A program made the translations under genes and the position numbers. From Eledone cirrhosa (Eukaryota): a DNA stretch of 64,000 nt. Below the pieces are notes generated by a model. That model made no database searches, had not been told where the DNA came from, and worked only from the letters and a program-made list of their open reading frames with translations. Shown in pieces: positions 3,661-51,702 of the stretch. Numbering within the stretch: the stretch's first letter is position 1; each line of letters opens with the position of its first letter. The stretch covers positions 160,208,001 through 160,272,000 of the forward strand of contig OZ024742.1 of the NCBI GenBank assembly GCA_964016885.1, read 5' to 3'.

Positions 3661-3702
<42 letters not shown>

Positions 3703-3710
<8 letters not shown>

Positions 3711-4386
3711 AAGTGAGTCCTTCATCAGTGACCCTCCAACCGTCCTCGGCATTTCATCGCTTTAAGGGCCATATGCCTCAGGTTGGTGCGAACAACGGCT
3801 AAAAAAAGTCGTTGGGACACGTAAATAAAGGGGGACGCTAGAGTAACAACAAAAGGGTTATAGCAACGGAGAGTGAGTAGAAATAGACAAGTCCCAGATC
3901 TCTATGAATATAAACTCTGTGAAATCGTGAACAAGAGACGAAAGACCATCGAACCTGGTAGAAATGTGAGCAAGGAAAGAATTTCGCCCAAGTTCGACGG
4001 GGGGGGGGGGGGGAAGAGAGAGAGAGAGAAAGAAAACTGGTCTACGAATTCGGTAAACGCAAGTTTTGTGAAGTCGCAGACGAAAGAGAGAGAGAGAAAA
4101 AAAATTCCATACCAGCTCGGTCAAGACTGCGCGAGAAAAGAATTACACACAGGTCAAACTTGAAGGAGGAGGAGGAAAGAGGAGGAGGAGAGGTAGTGAC
4201 AGAGAATGAGTGAGTGAAAGTTGAGGAGAGGGTAACAGAGAGGAGACTGCTAGAAGTGGTAGAGATACAAGGAACGAAACGGACAGGCAGCATGGAAAAG
4301 TATATGTGTAAATATGATGATAATAATGGAGCTGCGGCGTTGCAAATGGGATACATATGAAAAAGTGAGTCCTTCATCAGTGACCC

Positions 4387-4391
<5 letters not shown>
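3703..4391 (-). mobile_element. Retrozyme-like monomer (652-bp period plus 37-bp terminal direct repeat), diverged homolog of the 495-bp array unit
   Basis: ATATGAAAAAGTGAGTCCTTCATCAGTGACCCTCCAA at 3703-3739 and 4355-4391; (TA)n on both sides; minus strand aligns with the array unit over ~105 nt and also shares ACTTTCACTCACTCA. Confidence 0.75.
3717..3818 (-). ncRNA. Candidate non-circularly permuted hammerhead ribozyme (GC-rich variant)
   Basis: Minus strand: GTCC-CAACGAC..GCCGTTG-T-TCGC-ACCAACCTGA-GGCA-TA^-TGGCCCT-TAAA-GCGA-T-GAAA-TGCC-12nt-AGGGTCA-CTGATGA-A-GGAC. Confidence 0.7.
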
Positions 4392-4475
<84 letters not shown>

Positions 4476-4489
4476 TATTTTTTTTAAAT

Positions 4490-5812: not shown

Positions 5813-5852
<40 letters not shown>

Positions 5853-5854
<2 letters not shown>

Positions 5855-6200
5855 GGTCGTTACATCGACGACTGTATCGGAGCCACGACCCTCACCCGAG
5901 AACCGACTCCTTTCTCTCCTTCTTCTGCTCCTTCCACCCCTCTCTCCTCTTCACCACCTCTATCTCCAGCACCCACGTCCACTTCTTAGACATCTCCGTC
6001 GCCATCGACCCCTCCCACCACTCCCTTGTCACCTCCACCTTCTTCAAACGCACCGACTCCCACTCCTATCTCGATATCACCGGATCCTCAGGATCCGGCG
6101 CCTCTGCAGCCGAGATGGTGACTTTGAGTCCAGGCCCTTTCCCTAGTCAGCCATTTCATCCGCAGAGGTTCCATTCTACCCCTAAATTAAATTTCTACTA
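5853..6200 (+). pseudogene. Penelope-like element RT C-terminal fragment
   Basis: FHPSLLFTTSISSTHVHFLDISV...TFFKRTDSHSYL matches the PLE RT pattern FT..FLD...KPT.S..YL; followed by a hammerhead-bearing terminal repeat. Confidence 0.75.
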
Positions 6201-6451: not shown

Positions 6452-6515
6452 ATTTTTTAATATAAGGAACTTGTTCTTTGTTTTTATTTCATTGTTTTCA
6501 TTTATTTCATTAATT

Positions 6516-6547
<32 letters not shown>

Positions 6548-6548
6548 C

Positions 6549-6579
<31 letters not shown>

Positions 6580-6590
6580 CATATATATAT

Positions 6591-6911: not shown

Positions 6912-7153
6912 TACATATATATACATGCATATATATATATATATATGTATGTATATATTATGTTAATTTAATATATATATATATATATATATATAATATT
7001 TAAATATATACTGTATATAATATACATATATAATGAATTTGTATAATATATATACATCTATATATCTAAGTTTATATATACTTTTTTCATCGATATATAT
7101 ATAAGGGCCCGTTAAGGGTGAAAGCAGCGATTCTTTGCTTGAACTTTAATCCG

Positions 7154-8153: not shown

Positions 8154-11100
8154 ATATATTTTAATACATATATTTACCACTGCGATTCTGTGTTTTTTTC
8201 TCTCTCTCTTACTGTTCCCCCATTCTCTCTGTTTCTCCCCCTCTGTCATGTCCGTTAACTCTTCGTCACACTTTCACTCACTCACTGTTTTTCTCTCTCT
8301 TCTCTTCATTTCATCCTGCACACCACGAACGCTATTTTTCTCTCTCTGCTCATAGCCTTCGCTCGTGTAGGATCTATTCTCTAAGCGCTCATATATTCAC
8401 CTAGCTTATGCTAAACAGAATAATTTTTGAAGCTTGTTTCTTTCCCCCGGTTAGCTTTACTCTGTTGTTCTCCTGTCTCACTCGCTTTACGCGTTTTAAT
8501 TGTCCTAATAACTTATTTTGGTTATTATTGCACCGACGTGAGATATATGATTTTTAATGCAATGAAATATCTATGATCTTCGGCAAATCACTGATGAGGG
8601 ACTTATTTTATTACATGTTATCCATGTCCTACCTGCAGTATTTTTCTCTATATTTTAATACATATATTTACCACTGCGATTCTGTGTTTTTTTTCTCTCT
8701 CTCTTACTGTTCCCCCATTCTCTCTGTTTCTCCCCCTCTGTCATGTCCGTTAACTCTTCGTCACACTTTCACTCACTCACTGTTTTTCTCTCTCTTCTCT
8801 TCATTTCATCCTGCACACCACGAACGCTATTTTTCTCTCTCTGCTCATAGCCTTCGCTCGTGTAGGATCTATTCTCTAAGCGCTCATATATTCACCTAGC
8901 TTATGCTAAACAGAATAATTTTTGAAGCTTGTTTCTTTCCCCCGGTTAGCTTTACTCTGTTGTTCTCCTGTCTCACTCGCTTTACGCGTTTTAATTGTCC
9001 TAATAACTTATTTTGGTTATTATTGCACCGACGTGAGATATATGATTTTTAATGCAATGAAATATCTATGATCTTCGGCAAATCACTGATGAGGGACTTA
9101 TTTTATTACATGTTATCCATGTGCTACCTGCAGTATTTTTCTCTATATTTTAATACATATATTTACCACTGCGATTCTGTGTTTTTTTTCTCTCTCTCTT
9201 ACTGTTCCCCCATTCTCTCTGTTTCTCCCCCTCTGTCATGTCCGTTAACTCTTCGTCACACTTTCACTCACTCACTGTTTTTCTCTCTCTTCTCTTCATT
9301 TCATCCTGCACACCACGAACGCTATTTTTCTCTCTCTGCTCATAGCCTTCGCTCGTGTAGGATCTATTCTCTAAGCGCTCATATATTCACCTAGCTTATG
9401 CTAAACAGAATAATTTTTGAAGCTTGTTTCTTTCCCCCGGTTAGCTTTACTCTGTTGTTCTCCTGTCTCACTCGCTTTACGCGTTTTAATTGTCCTAATA
9501 ACTTATTTTGGTTATTATTGCACCGACGTGAGATATATGATTTTTAATGCAATGAAATATCTATGATCTTCGGCAAATCACTGATGAGGGACTTATTTTA
9601 TTACATGTTATCCATGTGCTACCTGCAGTATTTTTCTCTATATTTTAATACATATATTTACCACTGCGATTCTGTTTTTTTTTCTCTCTCTCTTACTGTT
9701 CCCCCATTCTCTCTGTTTCTCCCCCTCTGTCATGTCCGTTAACTCTTCCTCACACTTTCACTCACTCACTGTTTTTCTCTCTCTTCTCTTCATTTCATCC
9801 TGCACACCACGAACGCTATTTTTCTCTCTCTGCTCATAGCCTTCGCTCGTGTAGGATCTATTCTCTAAGCGCTCATATATTCACCTAGCTTATGCTAAAC
9901 AGAATAATTTTTGAAGCTTGTTTCTTTCCCCCGGTTAGCTTTACTCTGTTGTTCTCCTGTCTCACTCGCTTTACGCGTTTTAATTGTCCTAATAACTTAT
10001 TTTGGTTATTATTGCACCGACGTGAGATATATGATTTTTAATGCAATGAAATATCTATGATCTTCGGCAAATCACTGATGAGGGACTTATTTTATTACAT
10101 GTTATCCATGTGCTACCTGCAGTATTTTTCTCTATATTTTAATACATATATTTACTACTGCGATTCTGTGTTTTCCTCTCTCTCTCTTACTGTTCCCCCA
10201 TTCTCTCTGTTTCTCCCTCTCTGTCATGTCCGTTAACTCTTCCTCACACTTTCACTCACTCACTGTTTTTCTCTCTCTTCTCTTCATTTCATCCTGCACA
10301 CCACGAACGCTATTTTTCTCTCTCTGCTCATAGACTTCGCTCGTGTAGGATCTATTCTCTAAGCGCTCATATATTCACCTAGCTTATGCTAAACAGAATA
10401 ATTTTTGAAGCTTGTTTCTTTCCCCCGGTTAGCTTTACTCTGTTGTTCTCCTGTCTCACTCGCTTTACGCGTTTTAATTGTCCTAATAACTTATTTTGGT
10501 TATTATTGCACCGACGTGAGATATATGATTTTTAATGCAATGAAATATCTATGATCTTCGGCAAATCACTGATGAGGGACTTATTTTATTACATGTTATC
10601 CATGTCCTACCTGCAGTATTTTTCTCTATATTTTAATACATATATTTACCACTGCGATTCTGTGTTTTTTCCTCTCTCTCTTACTGTTCCCCCATTCTCT
10701 CTGTTTCTCCCCCTCTGTCATGTCCGTTAACTCTTCCTCACACTTTCACTCACTCACTGTTTTTCTCTCTCTTCTCTTCATTTCATCCTGCACACCACGA
10801 ACGCTATTTTTCTCTCTCTGCTCATAGCCTTCGCTCGTGTAGGATCTATTCTCTAAGCGCCCATATATTCACCTAGCTTATGCTAAACAGAATAATTTTT
10901 GAAGCTTGTTTCTTTCCCCCGGTTAGCTTAACTCTGTTGTTCTCCTGTCTCACTCGCTTTACGCGTTTTAATTGTCCTAATAACTTATTTTGGTTATTAT
11001 TGCACCGACGTGAGATATATGATTTTTAATGCAATGAAATATCTATGATCTTCGGCAAATCACTGATGAGGGACTTATTTTATTACATGTTATCCATGTG

Positions 11101-14100
11101 CTACCTGCAGTATTTTTCTCTATATTTTAATACATATATTTACCACTGCGATTCTGAGCTTTTTTCTCTCTCTCTTACTGTTCCCCCATTCTCTCTGTTT
11201 CTCCCCCTCTGTCATGTCCGTTAACTCTTCCTCACACTTTCACTCACTCACTGTTTTTCTCTCTCTTCTCTTCATTTCATCCTGCACACCACGAACGCTA
11301 TTTTTCTCTCTCTGCTCATAGCCTTCGCTCGTGTAGGATCTATTCTCTAAGCGCTCATATATTAACCTAGCTTATGCTAAACAGAATAATTTCTGAAGCT
11401 TGTTTCTTTCCGCCGGTTAGCTTTACTCTGTTGTTCTCCTGTCTCACTCGCTTTACGCGTTTTAATTGTCCTAATAACTTATTTTGGTTATTATTGCACC
11501 GACGTGAGATATATGATTTTTAATGCAATGAAATATCTATGATCTTCGGCAAATCACTGACGAGGGACTTATTTTATTACATGTTATCCATGTGCTACCT
11601 GCAGTATTTTTCTCTATAATTTAATACATATATTTACCACTGCGATTCTGTGTTTTTTCTCTCTCTCTTACTGTTCCCCCATTCTCTCTGTTTCTCCCCC
11701 TCTGTCATGTCCGTTAACTCTTCCTCACACTTTCACTCACTCACTGTTTTTCTCTCTCTTCTCTTCATTTCATCCTGCACACCACGAACGCTATTTTTCT
11801 CTCTCTGCTCATAGCCTTCGCTCGTGTAGGATCTATTCTCTAATGCGCTTATATATTCACCTAGCTTATGCTAAACAGAATAATTTCTGAAGCTTGTTTC
11901 TTTCCGCCGGTTAGCTTTACTCTGTTGTTCTCCTGTCTCACTCGCTTTACGCGTTTTAATTGTCCTAATAACTTATTTTGGTTATTATTGCACCGACGTG
12001 AGATATATGATTTTTAATGCAATGAAATATCTATGATCTTCGGCAAATCACTGACGAGGGACTTATTTTATTACATGTTATCCATGTGCTACCTGCAGTA
12101 TTTTTCTCTATAATTTAATACATATATTTACCACTGCGATTCTGTGTTTTTTCTCTCTCTCTTACTGTTCCCCCATTCTCTCTGTTTCTCCCCCTCTGTC
12201 ATGTCCGTTAACTCTTCCTCACACTTTCACTCACTCACTGTTTTTCTCTCTCTTCTCTTCATTTCATCCTGCACACCACGAACGCTATTTTTCTCTCTCT
12301 GCTCATAGCCTTCGCTCGTGTAGGATCTATTCTCTAAGCGCTCATATATTCACCTAGCTTATGCTAAACAGAATAATTTTTGAAGCTTGTTTCTTTCCGC
12401 CGGTTAGCTTTACTCTGTTGTTCTCCTGTCTCACTCGCTTTACGCGTTTTAATTGTCCTAATAACTTATTTTGGTTATTATTGCACCGACGTGAGATATA
12501 TGATTTTTAATGCAATGAAATATCTATGATCTTCGGCAAATCACTGACGAGGGACTTATTTTATTACATGTTATCCATGTGCTACCTGCAGTATTTTTCT
12601 CTATATTTTAATACATATATTTACCACTGCGATTCTGTGTTTTTTTCTCTCTCTCTTACTGTTCCCCCATTCTCTCTGTTTCTCCCTCTCTGTCATGTCC
12701 GTTAACTCTTCCTCTCACTTTCACTCACTCACTGTTTTTCTCTCTCTTCTCTTCATTTCATCCTGCACACCACGAACGCTATTTTTCTCTCTCTCTGCTC
12801 ATAGCCTTCGCTCGTGTAGGATCTATTCTCTAAGCGCTCATATATTCACCTAGCTTATGCTAAACAGAATAATTTTTGAAGCTTGTTTCTTTCCCCCGGT
12901 TTGCTTTACTCTGTTGTTCTCCTGTCTCACTCGCTTTACGCGTTTTAATTGTCCTAATAACTTATTTTGGTTATTATTGCACCGACGTGAGATATATGAT
13001 TTTTAATGCAATGAAATATCTATGATCTTCGGCAAATCACTGATGAGGGACTTATTTTATTACATGTTATCCATGTGCTACCTGCAGTATTTTTCTCTAT
13101 ATTTTAATACATATATTTACCACTGCGATTCTGTGTTTTTTTTCTCTCTCTCTTACTGTTCCCTCATTCTCTCTGTTTCTCCCCCTCTGTCATGTCCGTT
13201 AACTCTTCCTCACACTTTCACTCACTCACTGTTTTTCTCTCTCTTCTCTTCATTTCATCCTGCACACCACGAACGCTATTTTTCTCTCTCTGCTCATAGC
13301 CTTCGCTCGTGTAGGATCTATTCTCTAAGCGCTCATATATTCACCTAGCTTATGCTAAACAATAATTTTTGAAGCTTGTTTCTTTCCCCCGGTTAGCTTT
13401 ACTCTGTTGTTCTCCTGTCTCACTCGCTTTACGCGTTTTAATTGTCCTAATAACTTATTTTGGTTATTATTGCACCGACGTGAGATATATGATTTTTAAT
13501 GCAATGAAATATCTATGATCTTCGGCAAATCACTGATGAGGGACTTATTTTATTACATGTTATCCATGTGCTACCTGCAGTATTTTTCTCTATATTTTAA
13601 TACATATATTTACCACTGCGATTCTGTGTTTTTTTTCTCTCTCTCTTACTGTTCCCCCATTCTCTCTGTTTCTCCCCCTCTGTCATGTCCGTTAACTCTT
13701 CGTCACACTTTCACTCACTCACTGTTTTTCTCTCTCTTCTCTTCATTTCATCCTGCACACCACGAACGCTATTTTTCTCTCTCTGCTCATAGCCTTCGCT
13801 CGTGTAGGATCTATTCTCTAAGCGCTCATATATTCACCTAGCTTATGCTAAACAGAATAATTTTTGAAGCTTGTTTCTTTCCCCCGGTTAGCTTTACTCT
13901 GTTGTTCTCCTGTCTCACTCGCTTTACGCGTTTTAATTGTCCTAATAACTTATTTTGGTTATTATTGCACCGACGTGAGATATATGATTTTTAATGCAAT
14001 GAAATATCTATGATCTTCGGCAAATCACTGATGAGGGACTTATTTTATTACATGTTATCCATGTGCTACCTGCAGTATTTTTCTCTATATTTTAATACAT

Positions 14101-17100
14101 ATATTTACCACTGCGATTCTGTGTTTTTTTCTCTCTCTCTTACTGTTCCCCCATTCTCTCTGTTTCTCCCTCTCTGTCATGTCCGTTAACTCTTCCTCAC
14201 ACTTTCACTCACTCACTGTTTTTCTCTCTCTTCTCTTCATTTCGTCCTGCACACCACGAACGCTATTTTTCTCTCTCTCTGCTCATAGCCTTCGCTCGTG
14301 TAGGATCTATTCTCTAAGCGCTCATATATTCACCTAGCTTATGCTAAACAGAATAATTTTTGAAGCTTGTTTCTTTCCCCCGGTTAGCTTTACTCTGTTG
14401 TTCTCCTGTCTCACTCGCTTTACGTGTCTTAATTGTCCTAATAACTCATTTTGGTTATTATTGCACCGACGTGAGATATATGATTTTTAATGCAATGAAA
14501 TATCTATGATCTTCGGCAAATCACTGATGAGGGACTTATTTTATTACATGTTATCCATGTGCTACCTGCAGTATTTTTCTCTATATTTTAATACATATAT
14601 TTACCACTGCGATTCTGTGTTTTTTTCTCTCTCTCTTACTGTTCCCCCATTCTCTCTGTTTCTCCCCCTCTGTCATGTCCGTTAACTCTTCCTCACACTT
14701 TCACTCACTCACTGTTTTTCTCTCTCTTCTCTTCATTTCATCCTGCACACCACGAACGCTATTTTTCTCTCTCTGCTCATAGCCTTCGCTCGTGTAGGAT
14801 CTATTCTCTAAGCGCTCATATATTCACCTAGCTTATGCTAAACAGAATAATTTTTGAAGCTTGTTTCTTTCCCCCGGTTAGCTTTACTCTGTTGTTCTCC
14901 TGTCTCACTCGCTTTACGCGTTTTAATTGTCCTAATAACTTATTTTGGTTATTATTGCACCGACGTGAGATATATGATTTTTAATGCAATGAAATATCTA
15001 TGATCTTCGGCAAATCACTGATGAGGGACTTATTTTATTACATGTTATCCATGTGCTACCTGCAGTATTTTTCTCTATATTTTAATACATATATTTACCA
15101 CTGCGATTCTGTGTTTTTTTCTCTCTCTCTTACTGTTCCCCCATTCTCTCTGTTTCTCCCCCTCTGTCATGTCCGTTAACTCTTCCTCACACTTTCACTC
15201 ACTCACTGTTTTTCTCTCTCTTCTCTTCATTTCATCCTGCACACCACGAACGCTATTTTTCTCTCTCTGCTCATAGCCTTCGCTCGTGTAGGATCTATTC
15301 TCTAAGCGCTCATATATTCACCTAGCTTATGCTAAACAGAATAATTTTTGAAGCTTGTTTCTTTCCCCCGGTTAGCTTTACTCTGTTGTTCTCCTGTCTC
15401 ACTCGCTTTACGCGTTTTAATTGTCCTAATAACTTATTTTGGTTATTATTGGACCGACGTGAGATATATGATTTTTAATGCAATGAAATATCTATGATCT
15501 TCGGCAAATCACTGATGAGGGACTTATTTTATTACATGTTATCCATGTGCTACCTGCAGTATTTTTCTCTATATTTTAATACATATATTTACCACTGCGA
15601 TTCTGTGTTTTTTTTCTCTCTCTCTTACTGTTCCCCCATTCTCTCTGTTTCTCCCCCTCTGTCATGTCCGTTAACTCTTCCTCACACTTTCACTCACTCA
15701 CTGTTTTTCTCTCTCTTCTCTTCATTTCATCCTGCACACCACGAACGCTATTTTTCTCTCTCTGCTCATAGCCTTCGCTCGTGTAGGATCTATTCTCTAA
15801 GCGCTCATATATTCACCTAGCTTATGCTAAACAGAATAATTTTTGAAGCTTGTTTCTTTCCCCCGGTTAGCTTTACTCTGTTGTTCTCCTGTCTCACTCG
15901 CTTTACGCGTTTTAATTGTCCTAATAACTTATTTTGGTTATTATTGCACCGACGTGAGATATATGATTTTTAATGCAATGAAATATCTATGATCTTCGGC
16001 AAATCACTGATGAGGGACTTATTTTATTACATGTTATCCATGTCCTACCTGCAGTATTTTTCTCTATATTTTAATACATATATTTACCACTGCGATTCTG
16101 TGTTTTTTTTCTCTCTCTCTTACTGTTCCCCCATTCTCTCTGTTTCTCCCCCTCTGTCATGTCCGTTAACTCTTCCTCACACTTTCACTCACTCACTGTT
16201 TTTCTCTCTCTTCTCTTCATTTCATCCTGCACACCACGAACGCTATTTTTCTCTCTCTGCTCATAGCCTTCGCTCGTGTAGGATCTATTCTCTAAGCGCT
16301 CATATATTCACCTAGCTTATGCTAAACAGAATAATTTTTGAAGCTTGTTTCTTTCCCCCGGTTAGCTTTACTCTGTTGTTCTCCTGTCTCACTCGCTTTA
16401 CGCGTTTTAATTGTCCTAATAACTTATTTTGGTTATTATTGCACCGACGTGAGATATATGATTTTTAATGCAATGAAATATCTATGATCTTCGGCAAATC
16501 ACTGATGAGGGACTTATTTTATTACATGTTATCCATGTGCTACCTGCAGTATTTTTCTCTATATTTTAATACATATATTTACCACTGCGATTCTGTGTTT
16601 TTTTTTCTCTCTCTCTTACTGTTCCCCCATTCTCTCTGTTTCTCCCCCTCTGTCATGTCCGTTAACTCTTCCTCACACTTTCACTCACTCACTGTTTTTC
16701 TCTCTCTTCTCTTCATTTCGTCCTGCACACCACGAACGCTATTTTTCTCTCTCTCTGCTCATAGCCTTCGCTCGTGTAGGATCTATTCTCTAAGCGCTCA
16801 TATATTCACCTAGCTTATGCTAAACAGAATAATTTTTGAAGCTTGTTTCTTTCCCCCGGTTAGCTTTACTCTGTTGTTCTCCTGTCTCACTCGCTTTACG
16901 TGTCTTAATTGTCCTAATAACTCATTTTGGTTATTATTGCACCGACGTGAGATATATGATTTTTAATGCAATGAAATATCTATGATCTTCGGCAAATCAC
17001 TGATGAGGGACTTATTTTATTACATGTTATCCATGTGCTACCTGCAGTATTTTTCTCTATATTTTAATACATATATTTACCACTGCGATTCTGTGTTTTT

Positions 17101-20100
17101 TTCTCTCTCTCTTACTGTTCCCCCATTCTCTCTGTTTCTCCCCCTCTGTCATGTCCGTTAACTCTTCCTCACACTTTCACTCACTCACTGTTTTTCTCTC
17201 TCTTCTCTTCATTTCATCCTGCACACCACGAACGCTATTTTTCTCTCTCTGCTCATAGCCTTCGCTCGTGTAGGATCTATTCTCTAAGCGCTCATATATT
17301 CACCTAGCTTATGCTAAACAGAATAATTTTTGAAGCTTGTTTCTTTCCCCCGGTTAGCTTTACTCTGTTGTTCTCCTGTCTCACTCGCTTTACGCGTTTT
17401 AATTGTCCTAATAACTTATTTTGGTTATTATTGCACCGACGTGAGATATATGATTTTTAATGCAATGAAATATCTATGATCTTCGGCAAATCACTGATGA
17501 GGGACTTATTTTATTACATGTTATCCATGTGCTACCTGCAGTATTTTTCTCTATATTTTAATACATATATTTACCACTGCGATTCTGTGTTTTTTTCTCT
17601 CTCTCTTACTGTTCCCCCATTCTCTCTGTTTCTCCCCCTCTGTCATGTCCGTTAACTCTTCCTCACACTTTCACTCACTCACTGTTTTTCTCTCTCTTCT
17701 CTTCATTTCATCCTGCACACCACGAACGCTATTTTTCTCTCTCTGCTCATAGCCTTCGCTCGTGTAGGATCTATTCTCTAAGCGCTCATATATTCACCTA
17801 GCTTATGCTAAACAGAATAATTTTTGAAGCTTGTTTCTTTCCCCCGGTTAGCTTTACTCTGTTGTTCTCCTGTCTCACTCGCTTTACGCGTTTTAATTGT
17901 CCTAATAACTTATTTTGGTTATTATTGGACCGACGTGAGATATATGATTTTTAATGCAATGAAATATCTATGATCTTCGGCAAATCACTGATGAGGGACT
18001 TATTTTATTACATGTTATCCATGTGCTACCTGCAGTATTTTTCTCTATATTTTAATACATATATTTACCACTGCGATTCTGTGTTTTTTTTCTCTCTCTC
18101 TTACTGTTCCCCCATTCTCTCTGTTTCTCCCCCTCTGTCATGTCCGTTAACTCTTCCTCACACTTTCACTCACTCACTGTTTTTCTCTCTCTTCTCTTCA
18201 TTTCATCCTGCACACCACGAACGCTATTTTTCTCTCTCTGCTCATAGCCTTCGCTCGTGTAGGATCTATTCTCTAAGCGCTCATATATTCACCTAGCTTA
18301 TGCTAAACAGAATAATTTTTGAAGCTTGTTTCTTTCCCCCGGTTAGCTTTACTCTGTTGTTCTCCTGTCTCACTCGCTTTACGCGTTTTAATTGTCCTAA
18401 TAACTTATTTTGGTTATTATTGCACCGACGTGAGATATATGATTTTTAATGCAATGAAATATCTATGATCTTCGGCAAATCACTGATGAGGGACTTATTT
18501 TATTACATGTTATCCATGTCCTACCTGCAGTATTTTTCTCTATATTTTAATACATATATTTACCACTGCGATTCTGTGTTTTTTTTCTCTCTCTCTTACT
18601 GTTCCCCCATTCTCTCTGTTTCTCCCCCTCTGTCATGTCCGTTAACTCTTCCTCACACTTTCACTCACTCACTGTTTTTCTCTCTCTTCTCTTCATTTCA
18701 TCCTGCACACCACGAACGCTATTTTTCTCTCTCTGCTCATAGCCTTCGCTCGTGTAGGATCTATTCTCTAAGCGCTCATATATTCACCTAGCTTATGCTA
18801 AACAGAATAATTTTTGAAGCTTGTTTCTTTCCCCCGGTTAGCTTTACTCTGTTGTTCTCCTGTCTCACTCGCTTTACGCGTTTTAATTGTCCTAATAACT
18901 TATTTTGGTTATTATTGCACCGACGTGAGATATATGATTTTTAATGCAATGAAATATCTATGATCTTCGGCAAATCACTGATGAGGGACTTATTTTATTA
19001 CATGTTATCCATGTGCTACCTGCAGTATTTTTCTCTATATTTTAATACATATATTTACCACTGCGATTCTGTGTTTTTTTTTCTCTCTCTCTTACTGTTC
19101 CCCCATTCTCTCTGTTTCTCCCCCTCTGTCATGTCCGTTAACTCTTCCTCACACTTTCACTCACTCACTGTTTTTCTCTCTCTTCTCTTCATTTCATCCT
19201 GCACACCACGAACGCTATTTTTCTCTCTCTGCTCATAGCCTTCGCTCGTGTAGGATCTATTCTCTAAGCGCTCATATATTCACCTAGCTTATGCTAAACA
19301 GAATAATTTTTGAAGCTTGTTTCTTTCCCCCGGTTAGCTTTACTCTGTTGTTCTCCTGTCTCACTCGCTTTACGCGTTTTAATTGTCCTAATAACTTATT
19401 TTGGTTATTATTGCACCGACGTGAGATATATGATTTTTAATGCAATGAAATATCTATGATCTTCGGCAAATCACTGATGAGGGACTTATTTTATTACATG
19501 TTATCCATGTGCTACCTGCAGTATTTTTCTCTATATTTTAATACATATATTTACCACTGCGATTCTGTGTTTTTTTCTCTCTCTCTTACTGTTCCCCCAT
19601 TCTCTCTGTTTCTCCCCCTCTGTCATGTCCGTTAACTCTTCCTCACACTTTCACTCACTCACTGTTTTTCTCTCTCTTCTCTTCATTTCGTCCTGCACAC
19701 CACGAACGCTATTTTTCTCTCTGTCTGCTCATAGCCTTCGCTCGTGTAGGATCTATTCTCTAAGCGCTCATATATTCACCTAGCTTATGCTAAACAGAAT
19801 AATTTTTGAAGCTTGTTTCTTTCCCCCGGTTAGCTTTACTCTGTTGTTCTCCTGTCTCACTCGCTTTACGCGTTTTAATTGTCCTAATAACTTATTTTGG
19901 TTATTATTGCACCGACGTGAGATATATGATTTTTAATGCAATGAAATATCTATGATCTTCGGCAAATCACTGATGAGGGACTTATTTTATTACATGTTAT
20001 CCATGTGCTACCTGCAGTATTTTTCTCTATATTTTAATACATATATTTACCACTGCGATTCTGTGTTTTTTTTCTCTCTCTCTTACTGTTCCCCCATTCT

Positions 20101-23100
20101 CTCTGTTTCTCCCCCTCTGTCATGTCCGTTAACTCTTCCTCACACTTTCACTCACTCACTGTTTTTCTCTCTCTTCTCTTCATTTCATCCTGCACACCAC
20201 GAACGCTATTTTTCTCTCTCTGCTCATAGCCTTCGCTCGTGTAGGATCTATTCTCTAAGCGCTCATATATTCACCTAGCTTATGCTAAACAGAATAATTT
20301 TTGAAGCTTGTTTCTTTCCCCCGGTTAGCTTTACTCTGTTGTTCTCCTGTCTCACTCGCTTTACGCGTTTTAATTGTCCTAATAACTTATTTTGGTTATT
20401 ATTGCACCGACGTGAGATATATGATTTTTAATGCAATGAAATATCTATGATCTTCGGCAAATCACTGATGAGGGACTTATTTTATTACATGTTATCCATG
20501 TCCTACCTGCAGTATTTTTCTCTATATTTTAATACATATATTTACCACTGCGATTCTGTGTTTTTTTTCTCTCTCTCTTACTGTTCCCCCATTCTCTCTG
20601 TTTCTCCCCCTCTGTCATGTCCGTTAACTCTTCCTCACACTTTCACTCACTCACTGTTTTTCTCTCTCTTCTCTTCATTTCATCCTGCACACCACGAACG
20701 CTATTTTTCTCTCTCTGCTCATAGACTTCGCTCGTGTAGGATCTATTCTCTAAGCGCTCATATATTCACCTAGCTTATGCTAAACAGAATAATTTTTGTA
20801 GCTTGTTTCTTTCCCCCGGTTAGCTTTACTCTGTTGTTCTCCTGTCTCACTCGCTTTACGCGTTTTAATTGTCCTAATAACTTATTTTGGTTATTATTGC
20901 ACCGACGTGAGATATATGATTTTTAATGCAATGAAATATCTATGATCTTCGGCAAATCACTGATGAGGGACTTATTTTATTACATGTTATCCATGTGCTA
21001 CCTGCAGTATTTTTCTCTATAATTTAATACATATATTTACCACTGCGATTCTGTGTTTTTTCTCTCTCTCTTACTGTTCCCCCATTCTCTCTGTTTCTCC
21101 CCCTCTGTCATGTCCGTTAACTCTTCCTCACACTTTCACTCACTCACTGTTTTTCTCTCTCTTCTCTTCATTTCATCCTGCACGCCACGAACGCTATTTT
21201 TCTCTCTCTGCTCATAGCCTTCGCTCGTGTAGGATCTATTCTCTAAGCGCTCATATATTCACCTAGCTTATGCTAAACAGAATAATTTTTGAAGCTTGTT
21301 TCTTTCCCCCGGTTAGCTTTACTCTGTTGTTCTCCTGTCTCACTCGCTTTACGCGTTTTAATTGTCCTAATAACTTATTTTGGTTATTATTGCACCGACG
21401 TGAGATATATGATTTTTAATGCAATGAAATATCTATGATCTTCGGCAAATCACTGATGAGGGACTTATTTTATTACATGTTATCCATGTGCTACCTGCAG
21501 TATTTTTCTCTATATTTTAATACATATATTTACCACTGCGATTCTGTGTTTTTTTTCTCTCTCTCTTACTGTTCCCCCATTCTCTCTGTTTCTCCCCCTC
21601 TGTCATGTCCGTTAACTCTTCCTCACACTTTCACTCACTCACTGTTTTTCTCTCTCTTCTCTTCATTTCATCCTGCACACCACGAACGCTATTTTTCTCT
21701 CTCTGCTCATAGCCTTCGCTCGTGTAGGATCTATTCTCTAAGCGCTCATATATTCACCTAGCTTATGCTAAACACAATAATTTTTGAAGCTTGTTTCTTT
21801 CCCCCGGTTAGCTTTACTCTGTTGTTCTCCTGTCTCACTCGCTTTACGCGTTTTAATTGTCCTAATAACTTATTTTGGTTATTATTGCACCGACGTGAGA
21901 TATATGATTTTTAATGCAATGAAATATCTATGATCTTCGGCAAATCACTGATGAGGGACTTATTTTATTACATGTTATCCATGTGCTACCTGCAGTATTT
22001 TTCTCTATATTATAATACATATATTTACCACTGCGATTCTGTGTTTTTTTTCTCTCTCTCTTACTGTTCCCCCATTCTCTCTGTTTCTCCCCCTCTGTCA
22101 TGTCCGTTAACTCTTCCTCACACTTTCACTCACTCACTGTTTTACTCTCTCTTCTCTTCATTTCATCCTGCACACCACGAACGCTATTTTTCTCTCTCTG
22201 CTCATAGCCTTCGCTCGTGTAGGATCTATTCTCTAAGCGCTCATATATTCACCTAGCTTATGCTAAACAGAATAATTTTTGAAGCTTGTTTCTTTCCCCC
22301 GGTTAGCTTTACTCTGTTGTTCTCCTGTCTCACTCGCTTTACGCGTTTTAATTGTCCTAATAACTTATTTTGGTTATTATTGCACCGACGTGAGATATAT
22401 GATTTTTAATGCAATGAAATATCTATGATCTTCGGCAAATCACTGATGAGGGACTTATTTTATTACATGTTATCCATGTCCTACCTGCAGTATTTTTCTC
22501 TATATTTTAATACATATATTTACCACTGCGATTCTGTGTTTTTTTTCTCTCTCTCTTACTGTTCCCCCATTCTCTCTGTTTCTCCCCCTCTGTCATGTCC
22601 GTTAACTCTTCCTCACACTTTCACTCACTCACTGTTTTTCTCTCTCTTCTCTTCATTTCATCCTGCACACCACGAACGCTATTTTTCTCTCTCTGCTCAT
22701 AGCCTTCGCTCGTGTAGGATCTATTCTCTAAGCGCTCATATATTCACCTAGCTTATGCTAAACAGAATAATTTTTGAAGCTTGTTTCTTTCCCCCGGTTA
22801 GCTTTACTCTGTTGTTCTCCTGTCTCACTCGCTTTACGCGTTTTAATTGTCCTAATAACTTATTTTGGTTATTATTGCACCGACGTGAGATATATGATTT
22901 TTAATGCAATGAAATATCTATGATCTTCGGCAAATCACTGATGAGGGACTTATTTTATTACATGTTATCCATGTCCTACCTGCAGTATTTTTCTCTATAT
23001 TTTAATACATATATTTACCACTGCGATTCTGTGTTTTTTTTCTCTCTCTCTTACTGTTCCCCCATTCTCTCTGTTTCTCCCCCTCTGTCATGTCCGTTAA

Positions 23101-26100
23101 CTCTTCCTCACACTTTCACTCACTCACTGTTTTTCTCTCTCTTCTCTTCATTTCATCCTGCACACCACGAACGCTATTTTTCTCTCTCTGCTCATAGACT
23201 TCGCTCGTGTAGGATCTATTCTCTAAGCGCTCATATATTCACCTAGCTTATGCTAAACAGAATAATTTTTGAAGCTTGTTTCTTTCCCCCGGTTAGCTTT
23301 ACTCTGTTGTTCTCCTGTCTCACTCGCTTTACGCGTTTTAATTGTCCTAATAACTTATTTTGGTTATTATTGCACCGACGTGAGATATATGATTTTTAAT
23401 GCAGTGAAATATCTATGATCTTCGGCAAATCACTGATGAGGGACTTATTTTATTACATGTTATCCATGTGCTACCTGCAGTATTTTTCTCTATATTTTAA
23501 TACATATATTTACCACTGCGATTCTGTGTTTTTTTTCTCTCTCTCTTACTGTTCCCCCATTCTCTCTGTTTCTCCCCCTCTGTCATGTCCGTTAACTCTT
23601 CCTCACACTTTCACTCACTCACTGTTTTTCTCTCTCTTCTCTTCATTTCATCCTGCACACCACGAACGCTATTTTTCTCTCTCTGCTCATAGCCTTCGCT
23701 CGTGTAGGATCTATTCTCTAAGCGCTCATATATTCACCTAGCTTATGCTAAACAGAATAATTTTTGAAGCTTGTTTCTTTCCCCCGGTTAGCTTTACTCT
23801 GTTGTTCTCCTGTCTCACTCGCTTTACGCGTTTTAATTGTCCTAATAACTTATTTTGGTTATTATTGCACCGACGTGAGATATATGATTTTTAATGCAAT
23901 GAAATATTTATGATCTTCGGCAAATCACTGATGAGGGACTTATTTTATTACATGTTATCCATGTGCTACCTGCAGTATTTTTCTCTATATTTTAATACAT
24001 ATATTTACCACTGCGATTCTGTGTTTTTTTTCTCTCTCTCTTACTGTTCCCCCATTCTCTCTGTTTCTCCCCCTCTGTCATGTCCGTTAACTCTTCCTCA
24101 CACTTTCACTCACTCACTGTTTTTCTCTCTCTTCTCTTCATTTCATCCTGCACACCACGAACGCTATTTTTCTCTCTCTGCTCATAGCCTTCGCTCGTGT
24201 AGGATCTATTCTCTAAGCGCTCATATATTCACCTAGCTTATGCTAAACAGAATAATTTTTGAAGCTTGTTTCTTTCCCCCGGTTAGCTTTACTCTGTTGT
24301 TCTCCTGTCTCACTCGCTTTACGCGTTTTAATTGTCCTAATAACTTATTTTGGTTATTATTGCACCGACGTGAGATATATGATTTTTAATGCAATGAAAT
24401 ATCTATGATCTTCGGCAAATCACTGATGAGGGACTTATTTTATTACATGTTATCCATGTGCTACCTGCAGTATTTTTCTCTATATTTTAATACATATATT
24501 TACCACTGCGATTCTGTGTTTTTTTTCTCTCTCTCTTACTGTTCCCCCATTCTCTCTGTTTCTCCCCCTCTGCCATGTCCGTTAACTCTTCCTCACACTT
24601 TCACTCACTCACTGTTTTTCTCTCTCTTCTCTTCATTTCATCCTGCACACCACGAACGCTATTTTTCTCTCTCTGCTCATAGACTTCGCTCGTGTAGGAT
24701 CTATTCTCTAAGCGCTCATATATTCACCTAGCTTATGCTAAACAGAATAATTTTTGAAGCTTGTTTCTTTCCCCCGGTTAGCTTTACTCTGTTGTTCTCC
24801 TGTCTCACTCGCTTTACGCGTTTTAATTGTCCTAATAACTTATTTTGGTTATTATTGCACCGACGTGAGATATATGATTTTTAATGCAATGAAATATCTA
24901 TGATCTTCGGCAAATCACTGATGAGGGACTTATTTTATTACATGTTATCCATGTGCTACCTGCAGTATTTTTCTCTATAATTTAATACATATATTTACCA
25001 CTGCGATTCTGTGTTTTTTCTCTCTCTCTTACTGTTCCCCCATTCTCTCTGTTTCTCCCCCTCTGTCATGTCCGTTAACTCTTCCTCACACTTTCACTCA
25101 CTCACTGTTTTTCTCTCTCTTCTCTTCATTTCATCCTGCACGCCACGAACGCTATTTTTCTCTCTCTGCTCATAGCCTTCGCTCGTGTAGGATCTATTCT
25201 CTAAGCGCTCATATATTCACCTAGCTTATGCTAAACAGAATAATTTTTGAAGCTTGTTTCTTTCCCCCGGTTAGCTTTACTCTGTTGTTCTCCTGTCTCA
25301 CTCGCTTTACGCGTTTTAATTGTCCTAATAACTTATTTTGGTTATTATTGCACCGACGTGAGATATATGATTTTTAATGCAATGAAATATCTATGATCTT
25401 CGGCAAATCACTGATGAGGGACTTATTTTATTACATGTTATCCATGTGCTACCTGCAGTATTTTTCTCTATATTTTAATACATATATTTACCACTGCGAT
25501 TCTGTGTTTTTTTTCTCTCTCTCTTACTGTTCCCCCATTCTCTCTGTTTCTCCCCCTCTGTCATGTCCGTTAACTCTTCCTCACACTTTCACTCACTCAC
25601 TGTTTTTCTCTCTCTTCTCTTCATTTCATCCTGCACACCACGAACGCTATTTTTCTCTCTCTGCTCATAGCCTTCGCTCGTGTAGGATCTATTCTCTAAG
25701 CGCTCATATATTCACCTAGCTTATGCTAAACACAATAATTTTTGAAGCTTGTTTCTTTCCCCCGGTTAGCTTTACTCTGTTGTTCTCCTGTCTCACTCGC
25801 TTTACGCGTTTTAATTGTCCTAATAACTTATTTTGGTTATTATTGCACCGACGTGAGATATATGATTTTTAATGCAATGAAATATCTATGATCTTCGGCA
25901 AATCACTGATGAGGGACTTATTTTATTACATGTTATCCATGTGCTACCTGCAGTATTTTTCTCTATATTATAATACATATATTTACCACTGCGATTCTGT
26001 GTTTTTTTTCTCTCTCTCTTACTGTTCCCCCATTCTCTCTGTTTCTCCCCCTCTGTCATGTCCGTTAACTCTTCCTCACACTTTCACTCACTCACTGTTT

Positions 26101-29100
26101 TACTCTCTCTTCTCTTCATTTCATCCTGCACACCACGAACGCTATTTTTCTCTCTCTGCTCATAGCCTTCGCTCGTGTAGGATCTATTCTCTAAGCGCTC
26201 ATATATTCACCTAGCTTATGCTAAACAGAATAATTTTTGAAGCTTGTTTCTTTCCCCCGGTTAGCTTTACTCTGTTGTTCTCCTGTCTCACTCGCTTTAC
26301 GCGTTTTAATTGTCCTAATAACTTATTTTGGTTATTATTGCACCGACGTGAGATATATGATTTTTAATGCAATGAAATATCTATGATCTTCGGCAAATCA
26401 CTGATGAGGGACTTATTTTATTACATGTTATCCATGTCCTACCTGCAGTATTTTTCTCTATATTTTAATACATATATTTACCACTGCGATTCTGTGTTTT
26501 TTTTCTCTCTCTCTTACTGTTCCCCCATTCTCTCTGTTTCTCCCCCTCTGTCATGTCCGTTAACTCTTCCTCACACTTTCACTCACTCACTGTTTTTCTC
26601 TCTCTTCTCTTCATTTCATCCTGCACACCACGAACGCTATTTTTCTCTCTCTGCTCATAGCCTTCGCTCGTGTAGGATCTATTCTCTAAGCGCTCATATA
26701 TTCACCTAGCTTATGCTAAACAGAATAATTTTTAAAGCTTGTTTCTTTCCCCCGGTTAGCTTTACTCTGTTGTTCTCCTGTCTCACTCGCTTTACGCGTT
26801 TTAATTGTCCTAATAACTTATTTTGGTTATTATTGCACCGACGTGAGATATATGATTTTTAATGCAATGAAATATCTATGATCTTCGGCAAATCACTGAT
26901 GAGGGACTTATTTTATTACATGTTATCCATGTCCTACCTGCAGTATTTTTCTCTATATTTTAATACATATATTTACCACTGCGATTCTGTGTTTTTTTTC
27001 TCTCTCTCTTACTGTTCCCCCATTCTCTCTGTTTCTCCCCCTCTGTCATGTCCGTTAACTCTTCCTCACACTTTCACTCACTCACTGTTTTTCTCTCTCT
27101 TCTCTTCATTTCATCCTGCACACCACGAACGCTATTTTTCTCTCTCTGCTCATAGACTTCGCTCGTGTAGGATCTATTCTCTAAGCGCTCATATATTCAC
27201 CTAGCTTATGCTAAACAGAATAATTTTTGAAGCTTGTTTCTTTCCCCCGGTTAGCTTTACTCTGTTGTTCTCCTGTCTCACTCGCTTTACGCGTTTTAAT
27301 TGTCCTAATAACTTATTTTGGTTATTATTGCACCGACGTGAGATATATGATTTTTAATGCAATGAAATATCTATGATCTTCGGCAAATCACTGATGAGGG
27401 ACTTATTTTATTACATGTTATCCATGTGCTACCTGCAGTATTTTCTCTATATTTTAATACATATATTTACCACTGCGATTCTGTGTTTTTTTTCTCTCTC
27501 TCTTACTGTTCCCCCATTCTCTCTGTTTCTCCCCCTCTGTCATGTCCGTTAACTCTTCCTCACACTTTCACTCACTCACTGTTTTTCTCTCTCTTCTCTT
27601 CATTTCATCCTGCACACCACGAACGCTATTTTTCTCTCTCTGCTCATAGCCTTCGCTCGTGTAGGATCTATTCTCTAAGCGCTCATATATTCACCTAGCT
27701 TATGCTAAACAGAATAATTTTTGAAGCTTGTTTCTTTCCCCCGGTTAGCTTTACTCTGTTGTTCTCCTGTCTCACTCGCTTTACGCGTTTTAATTGTCCT
27801 AATAACTTATTTTGGTTATTATTGCACCGACGTGAGATATATGATTTTTAATGCAATGAAATATCTATGATCTTCGGCAAATCACTGATGAGGGACTTAT
27901 TTTATTACATGTTATCCATGTGCTACCTGCAGTATTTTTCTCTATATTTTAATACATATATTTACCACTGCGATTCTGTGTTTTTTTTCTCTCTCTCTTA
28001 CTGTTCCCCCATTCTCTCTGTTTCTCCCCCTCTGTCATGTCCGTTAACTCTTCCTCACACTTTCACTCACTCACTGTTTTTCTCTCTCTTCTCTTCATTT
28101 CATCCTGCACACCACGAACGCTATTTTTCTCTCTCTGCTCATAGCCTTCGCTCGTGTAGGATCTATTCTCTAAGCGCTCATATATTCACCTAGCTTATGC
28201 TAAACAGAATAATTTTTGAAGCTTGTTTCTTTCCCCCGGTTAGCTTTACTCTGTTGTTCTCCTGTCTCACTCGCTTTACGCGTTTTAATTGTCCTAATAA
28301 CTTATTTTGGTTATTATTGAACGACGTGAGATATATGATTTTTAATGCAATGAAATATCTATGATCTTCGGCAAATCACTGATGAGGGACTTATTTTATT
28401 ACATGTTATCCATGTCCTACCTGCAGTATTTTTCTCTATATTTTAATACATATATTTACCACTGCGATTCTGTGTTTTTTTTCTCTCTCTCTTACTGTTC
28501 CCCCATTCTCTCTGTTTCTCCCCCTCTGCCATGTCCGTTAACTCTTCCTCACACTTTCACTCACTCACTGTTTTTCTCTCTCTTCTCTTCATTTCATCCT
28601 GCACACCACGAACGCTATTTTTCTCTCTCTGCTCATAGACTTCGCTCGTGTAGGATCTATTCTCTAAGCGCTCATATATTCACCTAGCTTATGCTAAACA
28701 GAATAATTTTTGAAGCTTGTTTCTTTCCCCCGGTTAGCTTTACTCTGTTGTTCTCCTGTCTCACTCGCTTTACGCGTTTTAATTGTCCTAATAACTTATT
28801 TTGGTTATTATTGCACCGACGTGAGATATATGATTTTTAATGCAATGAAATATCTATGATCTTCGGCAAATCACTGATGAGGGACTTATTTTATTACATG
28901 TTATCCATGTGCTACCTGCAGTATTTTTCTCTATAATTTAATACATATATTTACCACTGCGATTCTGTGTTTTTTCTCTCTCTCTTACTGTTCCCCCATT
29001 CTCTCTGTTTCTCCCCCTCTGTCATGTCCGTTAACTCTTCCTCACACTTTCACTCACTCACTGTTTTTCTCTCTCTTCTCTTCATTTCATCCTGCACGCC

Positions 29101-32100
29101 ACGAACGCTATTTTTCTCTCTCTGCTCATAGCCTTCGCTCGTGTAGGATCTATTCTCTAAGCGCTCATATATTCACCTAGCTTATGCTAAACAGAATAAT
29201 TTTTGAAGCTTGTTTCTTTCCCCCGGTTAGCTTTACTCTGTTGTTCTCCTGTCTCACTCGCTTTACGCGTTTTAATTGTCCTAATAACTTATTTTGGTTA
29301 TTATTGCACCGACGTGAGATATATGATTTTTAATGCAATGAAATATCTATGATCTTCGGCAAATCACTGATGAGGGACTTATTTTATTACATGTTATCCA
29401 TGTCCTACCTGCAGTATTTTTCTCTATATTTTAATACATATATTTACCACTGCGATTCTGTGTTTTTTTTCTCTCTCTCTTACTGTTCCCCCATTCTCTC
29501 TGTTTCTCCCCCTCTGTCATGTCCGTTAACTCTTCCTCACACTTTCACTCACTCACTGTTTTTCTCTCTCTTCTCTTCATTTCATCCTGCACACCATGAA
29601 CGCTATTTTTCTCTCTCTGCTCATAGCCTTCGCTCGTGTAGGATCTATTCTCTAAGCGCTCATATATTCACCTAGCTTATGCTAAACACAATAATTTTTG
29701 AAGCTTGTTTCTTTCCCCGGTTAGCTTTACTCTGTTGTTCTCCTGTCTCACTCGCTTTACGCGTTTTAATTGTCCTAATAACTTATTTTGGTTATTATTG
29801 CACCGACGTGAGATATATGATTTTTAATGCAATGAAATATCTATGATCTTCGGCAAATCACTGATGAGGGACTTATTTTATTACATGTTATCCATGTGCT
29901 ACCTGCAGTATTTTTCTCTATATTATAATACATATATTTACCACTGCGATTCTGTGTTTTTTTTCTCTCTCTCTTACTGTTCCCCCATTCTCTCTGTTTC
30001 TCCCCCTCTGTCATGTCCGTTAACTCTTCCTCACACTTTCACTCACTCACTGTTTTACTCTCTCTTCTCTTCATTTCATCCTGCACACCACGAACGCTAT
30101 TTTTCTCTCTCTGCTCATAGCCTTCGCTCGTGTAGGATCTATTCTCTAAGCGCTCATATATTCACCTAGCTTATGCTAAACAGAATAATTTTTGAAGCTT
30201 GTTTCTTTCCCCCGGTTAGCTTTACTCTGTTGTTCTCCTGTCTCACTCGCTTTACGCGTTTTAATTGTCCTAATAACTTATTTTGGTTATTATTGCACCG
30301 ACGTGAGATATATGATTTTTAATGCAATGAAATATCTATGATCTTCGGCAAATCACTGATGAGGGACTTATTTTATTACATGTTATCCATGTGCTACCTG
30401 CAGTATTTTTCTCTATATTTTAATACATATATTTACCACTGCGATTCTGTGTTTTTTTTCTCTCTCTCTTACTGTTCCCCCATTCTCTCTGTTTCTCCCC
30501 CTCTGTCATGTCAGTTAACTCTTCCTCACACTTTCACTCACTCACTGTTTTTCTCTCTCTTCTCTTCATTTCATCCTGCACACCACGAACGCTATTTTTC
30601 TCTCTCTGCTCATAGCCTTCGCTCGTGTAGGATCTATTCTCTAAGCGCTCATATATTCACCTAGCTTATGCTAAACAGAATAATTTTTGAAGCTTGTTTC
30701 TTTCCCCCGGTTAGCTTTACTCTGTTGTTCTCCTGTCTCACTCGCTTTACGCGTATTAATTGTCCTAATAACTTATTTTGGTTATTATTGCACCGACGTG
30801 AGATATATGATTTTTAATGCAATGAAATATCTATGATCTTCGGCAAATCACTGATGAGGGACTTATTTTATTACATGTTATCCATGTCCTACCTGCAGTA
30901 TTTTTCTCTATATTTTAATACATATATTTACCACTGCGATTCTGTGTTTTTTTTCTCTCTCTCTTACTGTTCCCCCATTCTCTCTGTTTCTCCCCCTCTG
31001 TCATGTCCGTTAACTCTTCCTCACACTTTCACTCACTCACTGTTTTTCTCTCTCTTCTCTTCATTTCATCCTGCACACCACGAACGCTATTTTTCTCTCT
31101 CTGCTCATAGACTTCGCTCGTGTAGGATCTATTCTCTAAGCGCTCATATATTCACCTAGCTTATGCTAAACAGAATAATTTTTGAAGCTTGTTTCTTTCC
31201 CCCGGTTAGCTTTACTCTGTTGTTCTCCTGTCTCACTCGCTTTACGCGTTTTAATTGTCCTAATAACTTATTTTGGTTATTATTGCACCGACGTGAGATA
31301 TATGATTTTTAATGCAATGAAATATCTATGATCTTCGGCAAATCACTGATGAGGGACTTATTTTATTACATGTTATCCATGTGCTACCTGCAGTATTTTT
31401 CTCTATAATTTAATACATATATTTACCACTGCGATTCTGTGTTTTTTCTCTCTCTCTTACTGTTCCCCCATTCTCTCTGTTTCTCCCCCTCTGTCATGTC
31501 CGTTAACTCTTCCTCACACTTTCACTCACTCACTGTTTTTCTCTCTCTTCTCTTCATTTCATCCTGCACACCACGAACGCTATTTCTCTCTCTCTGCTCA
31601 TAGCCTTCGCTCGTGTAGGATCTATTCTCTAAGCGCTCATATATTCACCTAGCTTATGCTAAACAGAATAATTTTTGAAGCTTGTTTCTTTCCCCCGGTT
31701 AGCTTTACTCTGTTGTTCTCCTGTCTCACTCGCTTTACGCGTTTTAATTGTCCTAATAACTTATTTTGGTTATTATTGCACCGACGTGAGATATAAGATT
31801 TTTAATGCAATGAAATATCTATGATCTTCGGCAAATCACTGATGAGGGACTTATTTTATTACATGTTATCCATGTCCTACCTGCAGTATTTTTCTCTATA
31901 TTTTAATACATATATTTACCACTGCGATTCTGTGTTTTTTTTCTCTCTCTCTTACTGTTCCCCCATTCTCTCTGTTTCTCCCCCTCTGTCATGTCCGTTA
32001 ACTCTTCCTCACACTTTCACTCACTCACTGTTTTTCTCTCTCTTCTCTTCATTTCATCCTGCACACCACGAACGCTATTTTTCTCTCTCTGCTCATAGCC

Positions 32101-40690: not shown

Positions 40691-40732
40691 TATGTGTATA
40701 TATACATGTATATATATGTATGTATGTATATA

Positions 40733-40764
<32 letters not shown>

Positions 40765-40785
40765 AATATATGTATGTATATATAC

Positions 40786-51658: not shown

Positions 51659-51702
<44 letters not shown>

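Follow-up and report, generated by a model that had tools for sequence, protein, structure and literature searches.

A dispersed non-coding repeat of Eledone cirrhosa with a permuted hammerhead motif and Penelope-like insertion ends

The insertion, the neighbouring array and the repeat family

The DNA under study is a window of 64,000 nt of the Eledone cirrhosa genome (assembly GCA_964016885.1, contig OZ024742.1, positions 160,208,001 to 160,272,000 of the forward strand), and coordinates below count from its first letter. It contains a short insertion of a hammerhead-bearing repeat and a long tandem array of a sister subfamily.

3703..4391, minus strand (ribozyme sense): retrozyme-like dispersed insertion, 1.05 units of a 652-nt non-coding repeat, from repeat and border analysis
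3703..3739, minus strand: 3' copy of the terminal redundancy; its end, at about 3707, is reverse-transcription start site 1 (pyrimidine tract plus CATAT)
3717..3818, minus strand: complete S-G-C hammerhead motif with a four-way junction, from structure comparison
4301..4310, minus strand: reverse-transcription start site 2 (ACATATA), about 50 nt past site 1 and read through in this copy
4355..4391, minus strand: 5' copy of the redundancy, a truncated ribozyme with stem I', CUGAUGA (4374-4380) and the 3' strand of Pa only
3665..3706, no strand: (TA)n target on the element's 3' side
4392..4478, no strand: (TA)n target on the element's 5' side, which would mask any target-site duplication
8155..39312, plus strand: array of 63 units of the 495-bp sister subfamily, 59 of which fit the six-helix descriptor, grown by block duplication

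The insertion is 689 nt long. A preliminary description of this DNA had proposed a 652-nt unit with a 37-nt terminal redundancy, and the border is indeed exact over 37 nt at an offset of 652, although some 5 of these nt could equally belong to the adjoining TA runs. Also as described there, (TA)n flanks the insertion on both sides, with the run on the 5' side measured as 4391-4478, and a target-site duplication is masked. In the minus-strand sense the insertion begins 32 nt past the predicted cut, within the ribozyme, and ends 64 nt past the next predicted cut, about 10 nt beyond the last helix. The earlier placement of both ends within the ribozyme region is therefore right for the 5' end and wrong for the 3' end. 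The copy contains one complete ribozyme and one 5'-truncated ribozyme. The truncated one (4355..4391) cannot supply a second cut site, and because only one whole ribozyme is present, no circle can be excised by the insertion's own two cuts. No terminal inverted repeats were found at its ends. The only sizeable open reading frame in the repeat, of 111 aa, is of low complexity and shifts frame between copies.

The window holds several other repeats. A reverse transcriptase fragment of a second Penelope-like element (PLE) family, P0001, lies at 5852-6170 and is 81% identical to locus L145; full copies of that family carry a canonical minimal hammerhead. A 400-bp dispersed repeat occurs once on each side of the array, at 6513-6912 and 40373-40767, in opposite orientations and at 93% identity. 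An AT-rich palindromic element, partly duplicated, occupies 41100-41990 with TA runs on either side. A SINE-like short repeat of many copies is found at 439-1212, 54723-55075, 59937-60162 and 62539-63702, and is also inserted in relics of Naiad elements.

The insertion and the array lie in opposite orientations, as had been noted, and their best match is 116 nt at 68% on the other strand. Global alignment of the 652 and 495 units shows a conserved ribozyme followed by about 130 conserved nt, and elsewhere just pyrimidine-rich patches. With 40 of 2,183 candidates scored, a DNA search of the 3.0-Gb genome gave at least 84 matches to the insertion, the best of them 93-98% identical to it; a search with the 495 unit gave at least 99 (39 of 1,153 candidates scored). 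Among the matches listed, family copies are up to 98-100% alike. A pattern for the motif matched the whole genome 13,663 times, against 0 for its control, and two further patterns matched 362 times (1 in the control) and 2,148 times (0 in the control); the genome holds at least 13,663 motif copies. The best-matching unit lengths are mostly 488-756 nt. The proposal that at least two subfamilies, of 495 and 652 nt, share the rearranged ribozyme stands, these being two of many. Contigs from three sequencing runs of unknown kind contain variants of the family and say nothing on its expression. Viral contigs gave 0 matches to the motif pattern.

Variants in the 63-unit array are shared with periods of 8, 5 and 6/4/3 units, showing that it expanded by block duplication at the DNA level. 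A single long rolling-circle product was considered as its origin and rejected, as higher-order repeats are present. Two other loci show related rearrangements. At about 2050-2880 of locus L033 (C3, 343.19 Mb) an array of the 495 family directly abuts a unit of another subfamily, a junction that suggests template switching between family RNAs. At about 360-2825 of locus L211 a 129-bp internal piece of a related unit has been amplified into a tandem of about 15 copies.

The permuted hammerhead motif

The complete motif of the insertion is read on the minus strand as follows.

3815-3818 with 3717-3720, minus strand: helix Pa
3793-3814, minus strand: hairpin Pb
3788-3791 with 3757-3760, minus strand: helix Pd
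3781-3786 with 3736-3741, minus strand: helix Pc
3774-3777 with 3748-3751, minus strand: stem III
3765-3771 with 3729-3735, minus strand: stem I
3752-3755 and 3722-3728, minus strand: GAAA and CUGAUGA
3771..3773, minus strand: U16.1 (3773) and A17 (3772), an AUA triplet with predicted self-cleavage at 3772/3771, by analogy to the hammerhead core
3742..3780, minus strand: kink-turn-like joint between stem III and Pc, with GA at 3778-3779 and a 3-nt bulge followed by GA at 3743-3744

All strands of a hammerhead core are present, in the order cleavage site, GAAA, CUGANGA, which is the non-circular order S-G-C. Stems I and III directly adjoin the core (CUGANGA, GAAA and UH), as they do in hammerheads. 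In place of a single-helix stem II, which would pair the strand after A9 with the strand before G12, the motif has a junction of Pa, Pb and Pd. The strand following CUGANGA pairs with the 5'-most strand to form Pa, the strand preceding GAAA pairs with a second upstream strand to form Pd, and Pb lies between them. The sixth helix, Pc, joins the far sides of stems I and II, and five of its six pairs change on both sides. Of 182 distinct cores, 132 and 169 retain the two GA dinucleotides of the joint between stem III and Pc, and the joint presumably fits the kink-turn consensus.

Among 25 representatives, 94.3% of 825 cells pair. Both sides change in 19 of the 33 pairs, compared with 12.2 in shuffles and 4-6 in slid controls, the 25 alignment rows being related copies for which the shuffle control overstates support. 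Pa was fixed by the search pattern in this set, and it varies in step in two further subfamilies. All six helices are found in 103 of 142 distinct cores and also in 59 array units. Of 182 cores, 171 have A or C at H17; position N7 is variable. The invariance of CUGANGA and GAAA is by construction, as the search patterns demanded both, and those with 13,663 and 362 matches demanded GGAC as well; the stems were not demanded. On the stem II side, the core is flanked by a non-canonical pair, R-U in 19 of the 25 rows and unpaired in the other 6. The minimum-energy fold of the window ribozyme places CUGAUGA in a competing hairpin, in a program that cannot draw pseudoknots. Rfam reports no hammerhead here, with 0 matches at the gathering threshold and none among 20 weak matches. 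Taken together, the comparative data support a six-helix fold through covariation, and by analogy to the hammerhead core self-cleavage is predicted after H17 (AUA or AUC). A classic type III hammerhead formed across neighbouring units would also be compatible with the covariation; Naiad untranslated regions that hold a single ribozyme argue for the local fold.

The order of strands is known from type-SGC hammerheads, whose cleavage has been validated for HRIMA-1 and variants (Eckert et al. 2023, PMC10085705). The present motif resembles them in its S-G-C order, in the short linker that leads from stem I into the strand preceding GAAA, and in an additional helix, here Pc, that connects stems I and II at their far sides. 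In the available part of that report stem II is described as one helix, whereas here it is a four-way junction, and in an animal retroelement. Block C here lacks a strand for one side of a continuous stem II, and we regard the motif as an SGC-like junction variant, of a sort that the supplementary alignments of PMC10085705 may also hold. According to the same part of the report, no such RNA had turned up in the genome of any known organism, one GCS candidate excepted. In the literature listings and abstract openings that we covered, and in the available part of PMC13725137, we found no report of permuted hammerheads in Naiads or in animal genomes.

It seems improbable to us that the fold exists without cutting, kept as an element for binding of a PLE protein or for stability in which the hammerhead core is a vestige. 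Such a reading would account for the 120 of 127 insertions that read through the predicted cut, and it would suit a motif in which a junction replaces stem II and the core-flanking pair is a mismatch in two subfamilies. Against it, subfamilies and Naiads with no other sequence in common all retain every core nucleotide and obey the NUH rule, the variation at N7 is like that of working hammerheads, and S-G-C hammerheads from metatranscriptomes do cut (PMC10085705).

Insertion ends and the RNA template

Ends were mapped for 143 segments at 140 loci obtained with the motif patterns. The loci all lie on contig C1 and were used in the order of the listing; nine 3' ends and two 5' ends were left out as cut by the locus edge. 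Almost all 3' ends, 128 of 134, lie at two fixed sites, 29 at 62-76 nt and 99 at 98-132 nt past the predicted cut, and 121 of the 128 run into TA. Both sites consist of a pyrimidine tract followed by a CATAT-like sequence, and they are 40-50 nt apart. The 141 usable 5' ends are spread across all ten deciles of the unit (15, 14, 14, 12, 8, 16, 21, 8, 19 and 14). The 127 complete segments have a median length of 0.91 unit: 77 are shorter than one unit, 50 reach one, 11 reach 1.5 and 3 reach two. Inversions are seen at 16 of 57 non-TA 5' junctions, several of them counted from both arms. A 23-nt stretch at the predicted cut holds 13 of the 5' ends and the 100 nt that follow hold 25 (uncorrected p=0.017, inversion pairs being counted twice). 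In a first sample 17 of 28 5' ends had gathered at the cut; in the larger one this strong excess became mild, and it is no proof of cleavage.

With 3' ends at two sites, 5' ends spread and 5' inversions, the end pattern of the family is that of a PLE: the 3' ends are fixed with an optional tail, copies are truncated and sometimes inverted at the 5' end, and the target is a microsatellite. Two adjacent internal start sites bounding a tail of 30-40 bp are a PLE signature (PMC11167929). Poseidon, a PLE of Anolis, resembles this family in its AT-rich targets and in having a tail set by two neighbouring internal start sites (Frangieh et al. 2024, PMC11167929). Its start sites have no homology to the cut DNA, whereas those of this family have CATAT-like ends able to pair with a (TA)n primer. 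The preliminary description of a dispersed, retrozyme-like and PLE-linked family is supported.

The same data change how the terminal redundancy is to be read. It had been taken as the signature of a circle, to be recognised by variable permutation points with short redundancy; instead the 3' ends are fixed in 128 of 134 cases at two sites, only the 5' end varies, and the median copy is 0.91 unit. The 37-nt redundancy is a chance stopping point of reverse transcription. Neither do the copies look as the preliminary description had pictured its own refutation, with both ends fixed, LTR or TIR features, or no other copies: the 3' ends are fixed, and yet the 5' ends vary and other copies exist. 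Priming at random points on a circle, giving permuted copies of slightly more than one unit, would suit the insertion at 3703-4391 and the 24 other segments of 1.0-1.15 units among the 127. With 3' ends at two sites and 77 of the 127 insertions below one unit, we consider it very improbable. Less probable still is a spread at the DNA level, by extrachromosomal DNA circles or a DNA transposon and with no RNA step. Block duplication did enlarge the 63-unit array, but such a route is at odds with ends that are polar, copies truncated or inverted at the 5' end, the targeting of (TA)n and the covariation of RNA helices, as it is with element ends that lack terminal inverted repeats.

At least one predicted cut site is read through in 120 of the 127 complete segments. 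Because most copies read through it, the template is a head-to-tail RNA, either circular or a tandem transcript left uncut. Units of the same insertion have a common haplotype in the 23 multi-unit segments. Locus-private variants occur in all units of 6 of the 23, and no clearly recurring position-specific variants were seen in these segments. The shared private variants lean towards repeated copying of one unit, but the same result would come from a source array that has been homogenised. Known animal retrozymes yield abundant circles (PMC7229834). In the one PLE reconstituted in vitro, from Anolis, the enzyme worked mainly on uncleaved RNA and did not need the hammerhead (PMC11167929), which favours an uncut linear template. 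Given the rest of our reading, a re-ligated circle has slightly better than even chances as template, and an uncut multimer somewhat less than even.

As a complete explanation, the same family and PLE enzyme working from an uncut linear transcript of a tandem array, with circles absent or a by-product, is rather unlikely, if the most serious alternative. Apart from the Anolis result, published type-SGC ribozymes are slow (0.007-0.19 per minute; PMC10085705), homogeneous arrays such as the 63-mer exist as a source of RNA, and only 3 of 127 insertions reach two units. The private variants present in all units of 6 of 23 segments, to which a homogenised array would nevertheless also fit, and the lack of clearly recurring position-specific variants point the other way.

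Naiad elements, the helper enzyme and the place of the family

Naiads are PLEs that target (TA)n, and in the available part of their description they have no canonical hammerheads, with a half core in only eight cases (PMC8557442). They share with the present family the (TA)n target, 5' inversions and an optional tail (Craig et al. 2021, PMC8557442), and several carry a six-helix motif in the 3' UTR as here, some of them flagged HHR_half_core (PMC8557442). They encode an endonuclease and a reverse transcriptase, whereas the present element is non-coding; BLAST comparison of it with a set of Naiad loci gave no similarity.

We searched metagenomes for homologues of a Naiad relic from this genome and took 80 of 113 confirmed loci, 48 of which had at least 250 nt of 3' sequence. 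The six-helix motif is present in 7 of the 80, always on the coding strand; it lies 89-443 nt past the stop codon in six and upstream of the open reading frame in one. The other strand and ten shuffles gave 0 matches. Stem II pairs numbered 0 in five Naiad loci. In six motif-bearing loci the reading frame has, by eye, an endonuclease-like region at the N-terminus. Among the 48 loci with sufficient 3' sequence, 43 had no match to the first descriptor, and a revised version found one more; many Naiads may thus use something other than the six-helix motif. In 53 Naiad relic loci of this genome the descriptor gave 2 weak, AT-rich false matches. A metagenome scan with a decayed Naiad fragment confirmed 0 of 124 stretches.

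The 3' ends of 53 published Naiad consensus sequences (File S5, PMC8557442), about 350 nt each, were read by eye. The S-G-C order is seen in 9 of them (Bfor, Chem-3, Amil, Aacu, Anas, Movir-2, Obim, Ovul and Esco), with not every helix visible in each, and those of Naiad_Obim and Naiad_Ovul show the six-helix fold with the same kink-turn-like joint. A C-S-G order is seen in 6 nematode Naiads (Naiad-1, -2 and -3_Nbra, Hcon, Hpol and Asuum), where the hammerheads have a continuous stem II and a long extra helix. The remaining 38 show neither order. Several of the oyster, hemichordate and related Naiads share another 3' UTR motif, GGCGGGTG ... GCACCTG, which to the eye looks pseudoknotted and HDV-like. 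BLAST of the repeat units against Naiad 3' regions found no similarity apart from nested insertions, and a ribozyme pattern specific to octopus Naiads had 0 matches in this genome. The ribozyme fold was likely inherited from the 3' UTRs of Naiad elements.

The Naiads of this genome look decayed. At least 69 matches came from 106 candidates, most at no more than 83% identity and many with stops, and the longest open frame among the relics is 233 aa. Reverse-transcriptase patterns for Naiads matched this genome 7 times against 1 in the control, and once against 2 in the controls. An intact ribozyme was found in 0 of 22 relics, and an alignment of 12 relic 3' regions held no parseable one. Searches of the same genome for an autonomous Naiad with sequence homology to the repeat found decayed relics only, although an intact Naiad may be present.

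Because the Naiads found here look decayed, the helper is probably another PLE. The present helper is likely a young, intact, (TA)n-targeting PLE with a C-terminal endonuclease, and the L275/L276 family is a candidate. It has a C-terminal GIY-YIG domain and a canonical type I hammerhead, and, by eye against PMC8557442, a Neptune-type cysteine linker. At least 150 matches were found, most at 94-97%, with open frames of 960-982 aa; the family targets (TA)n and has two 3' ends, separated by 60 nt. The repeat units have no BLAST similarity to it, and 0 of 57 non-TA junctions are chimeric with it. Pfam was uninformative for the PLE proteins. The window has a 5'-truncated and 5'-inverted copy of the candidate helper at 51685-52443, 93-95% identical to L276. 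By eye, a related PLE-like 3' end starts at about 39565 and adjoins the TA run of the array. PLE reading frames next to family copies at L016, L018 and L092 were considered as parents and rejected as nested insertions, with TA runs in between.

Retrozymes have been published as non-autonomous PLE derivatives with type I hammerheads (PMC7229834; bioRxiv 10.64898/2026.07.22.740005). The family resembles the non-LTR retrozymes of metazoans (Cervera and de la Pena 2020, PMC7229834; Li, Clavereau and Pollet, bioRxiv 10.64898/2026.07.22.740005), which are likewise non-coding, low-GC hammerhead repeats in monomers to long arrays and proposed PLE derivatives. It has a non-coding tandem unit, one hammerhead per unit, and dispersed copies as well as arrays. 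It differs in that theirs are type I hammerheads in units of mostly 150-450 bp, while it has an S-G-C order with a four-way junction, units of about 490-760 bp and no Rfam hammerhead match. Circles have been demonstrated for those elements and are proposed for this family.

The explanation we favour, with some confidence, is that 3703-4391 is a 5'-truncated copy of a non-coding repeat with two fixed end sites, placed in (TA)n by a PLE reverse transcriptase from a head-to-tail RNA, a circle being likelier than an uncut transcript, and bearing a predicted self-cleaving permuted hammerhead of Naiad origin. Tandem copies would be transcribed. The S-G-C ribozyme, in the six-helix fold that covariation supports, would cut after AUA or AUC. 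Pa, Pd, Pc and stem III would bridge the two cut halves and may favour their re-joining into unit-length circles. A putative PLE protein would nick (TA)n and start cDNA at either internal pyrimidine-CATAT site, the sites themselves being observed. As the end distribution shows, synthesis crosses the unit joint and ends at no fixed place, in this copy after 37 nt of a second round. Some insertions would then grow into satellites by block duplication of DNA, as the 63-mer did.

More broadly, Naiads and their non-coding offspring may use active, non-circularly permuted hammerheads, the first of this kind in animal genomes, with four-way-junction S-G-C forms in marine invertebrates and C-S-G forms in nematodes; here RNA circles would have outlived their Naiad parent and reached more than 10,000 copies through the enzyme of another PLE clade. 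We hold this wider proposal at slightly under even chances. The pattern of mobility is known; the wiring of the ribozyme and the tie to Naiads appear new, and comparative structure supports them well.

If the motif cuts, it would explain why the very abundant Naiads seemed to be without hammerheads, and standard ribozyme searches would be missing whole retrozyme families with more than 10,000 copies per genome. A textbook ribozyme would gain a new wiring, with a four-way junction in place of stem II. In the end statistics, internal priming at two sites is seen cleanly in vivo, and the family is possibly a case of a non-autonomous element changing helpers between PLE clades.
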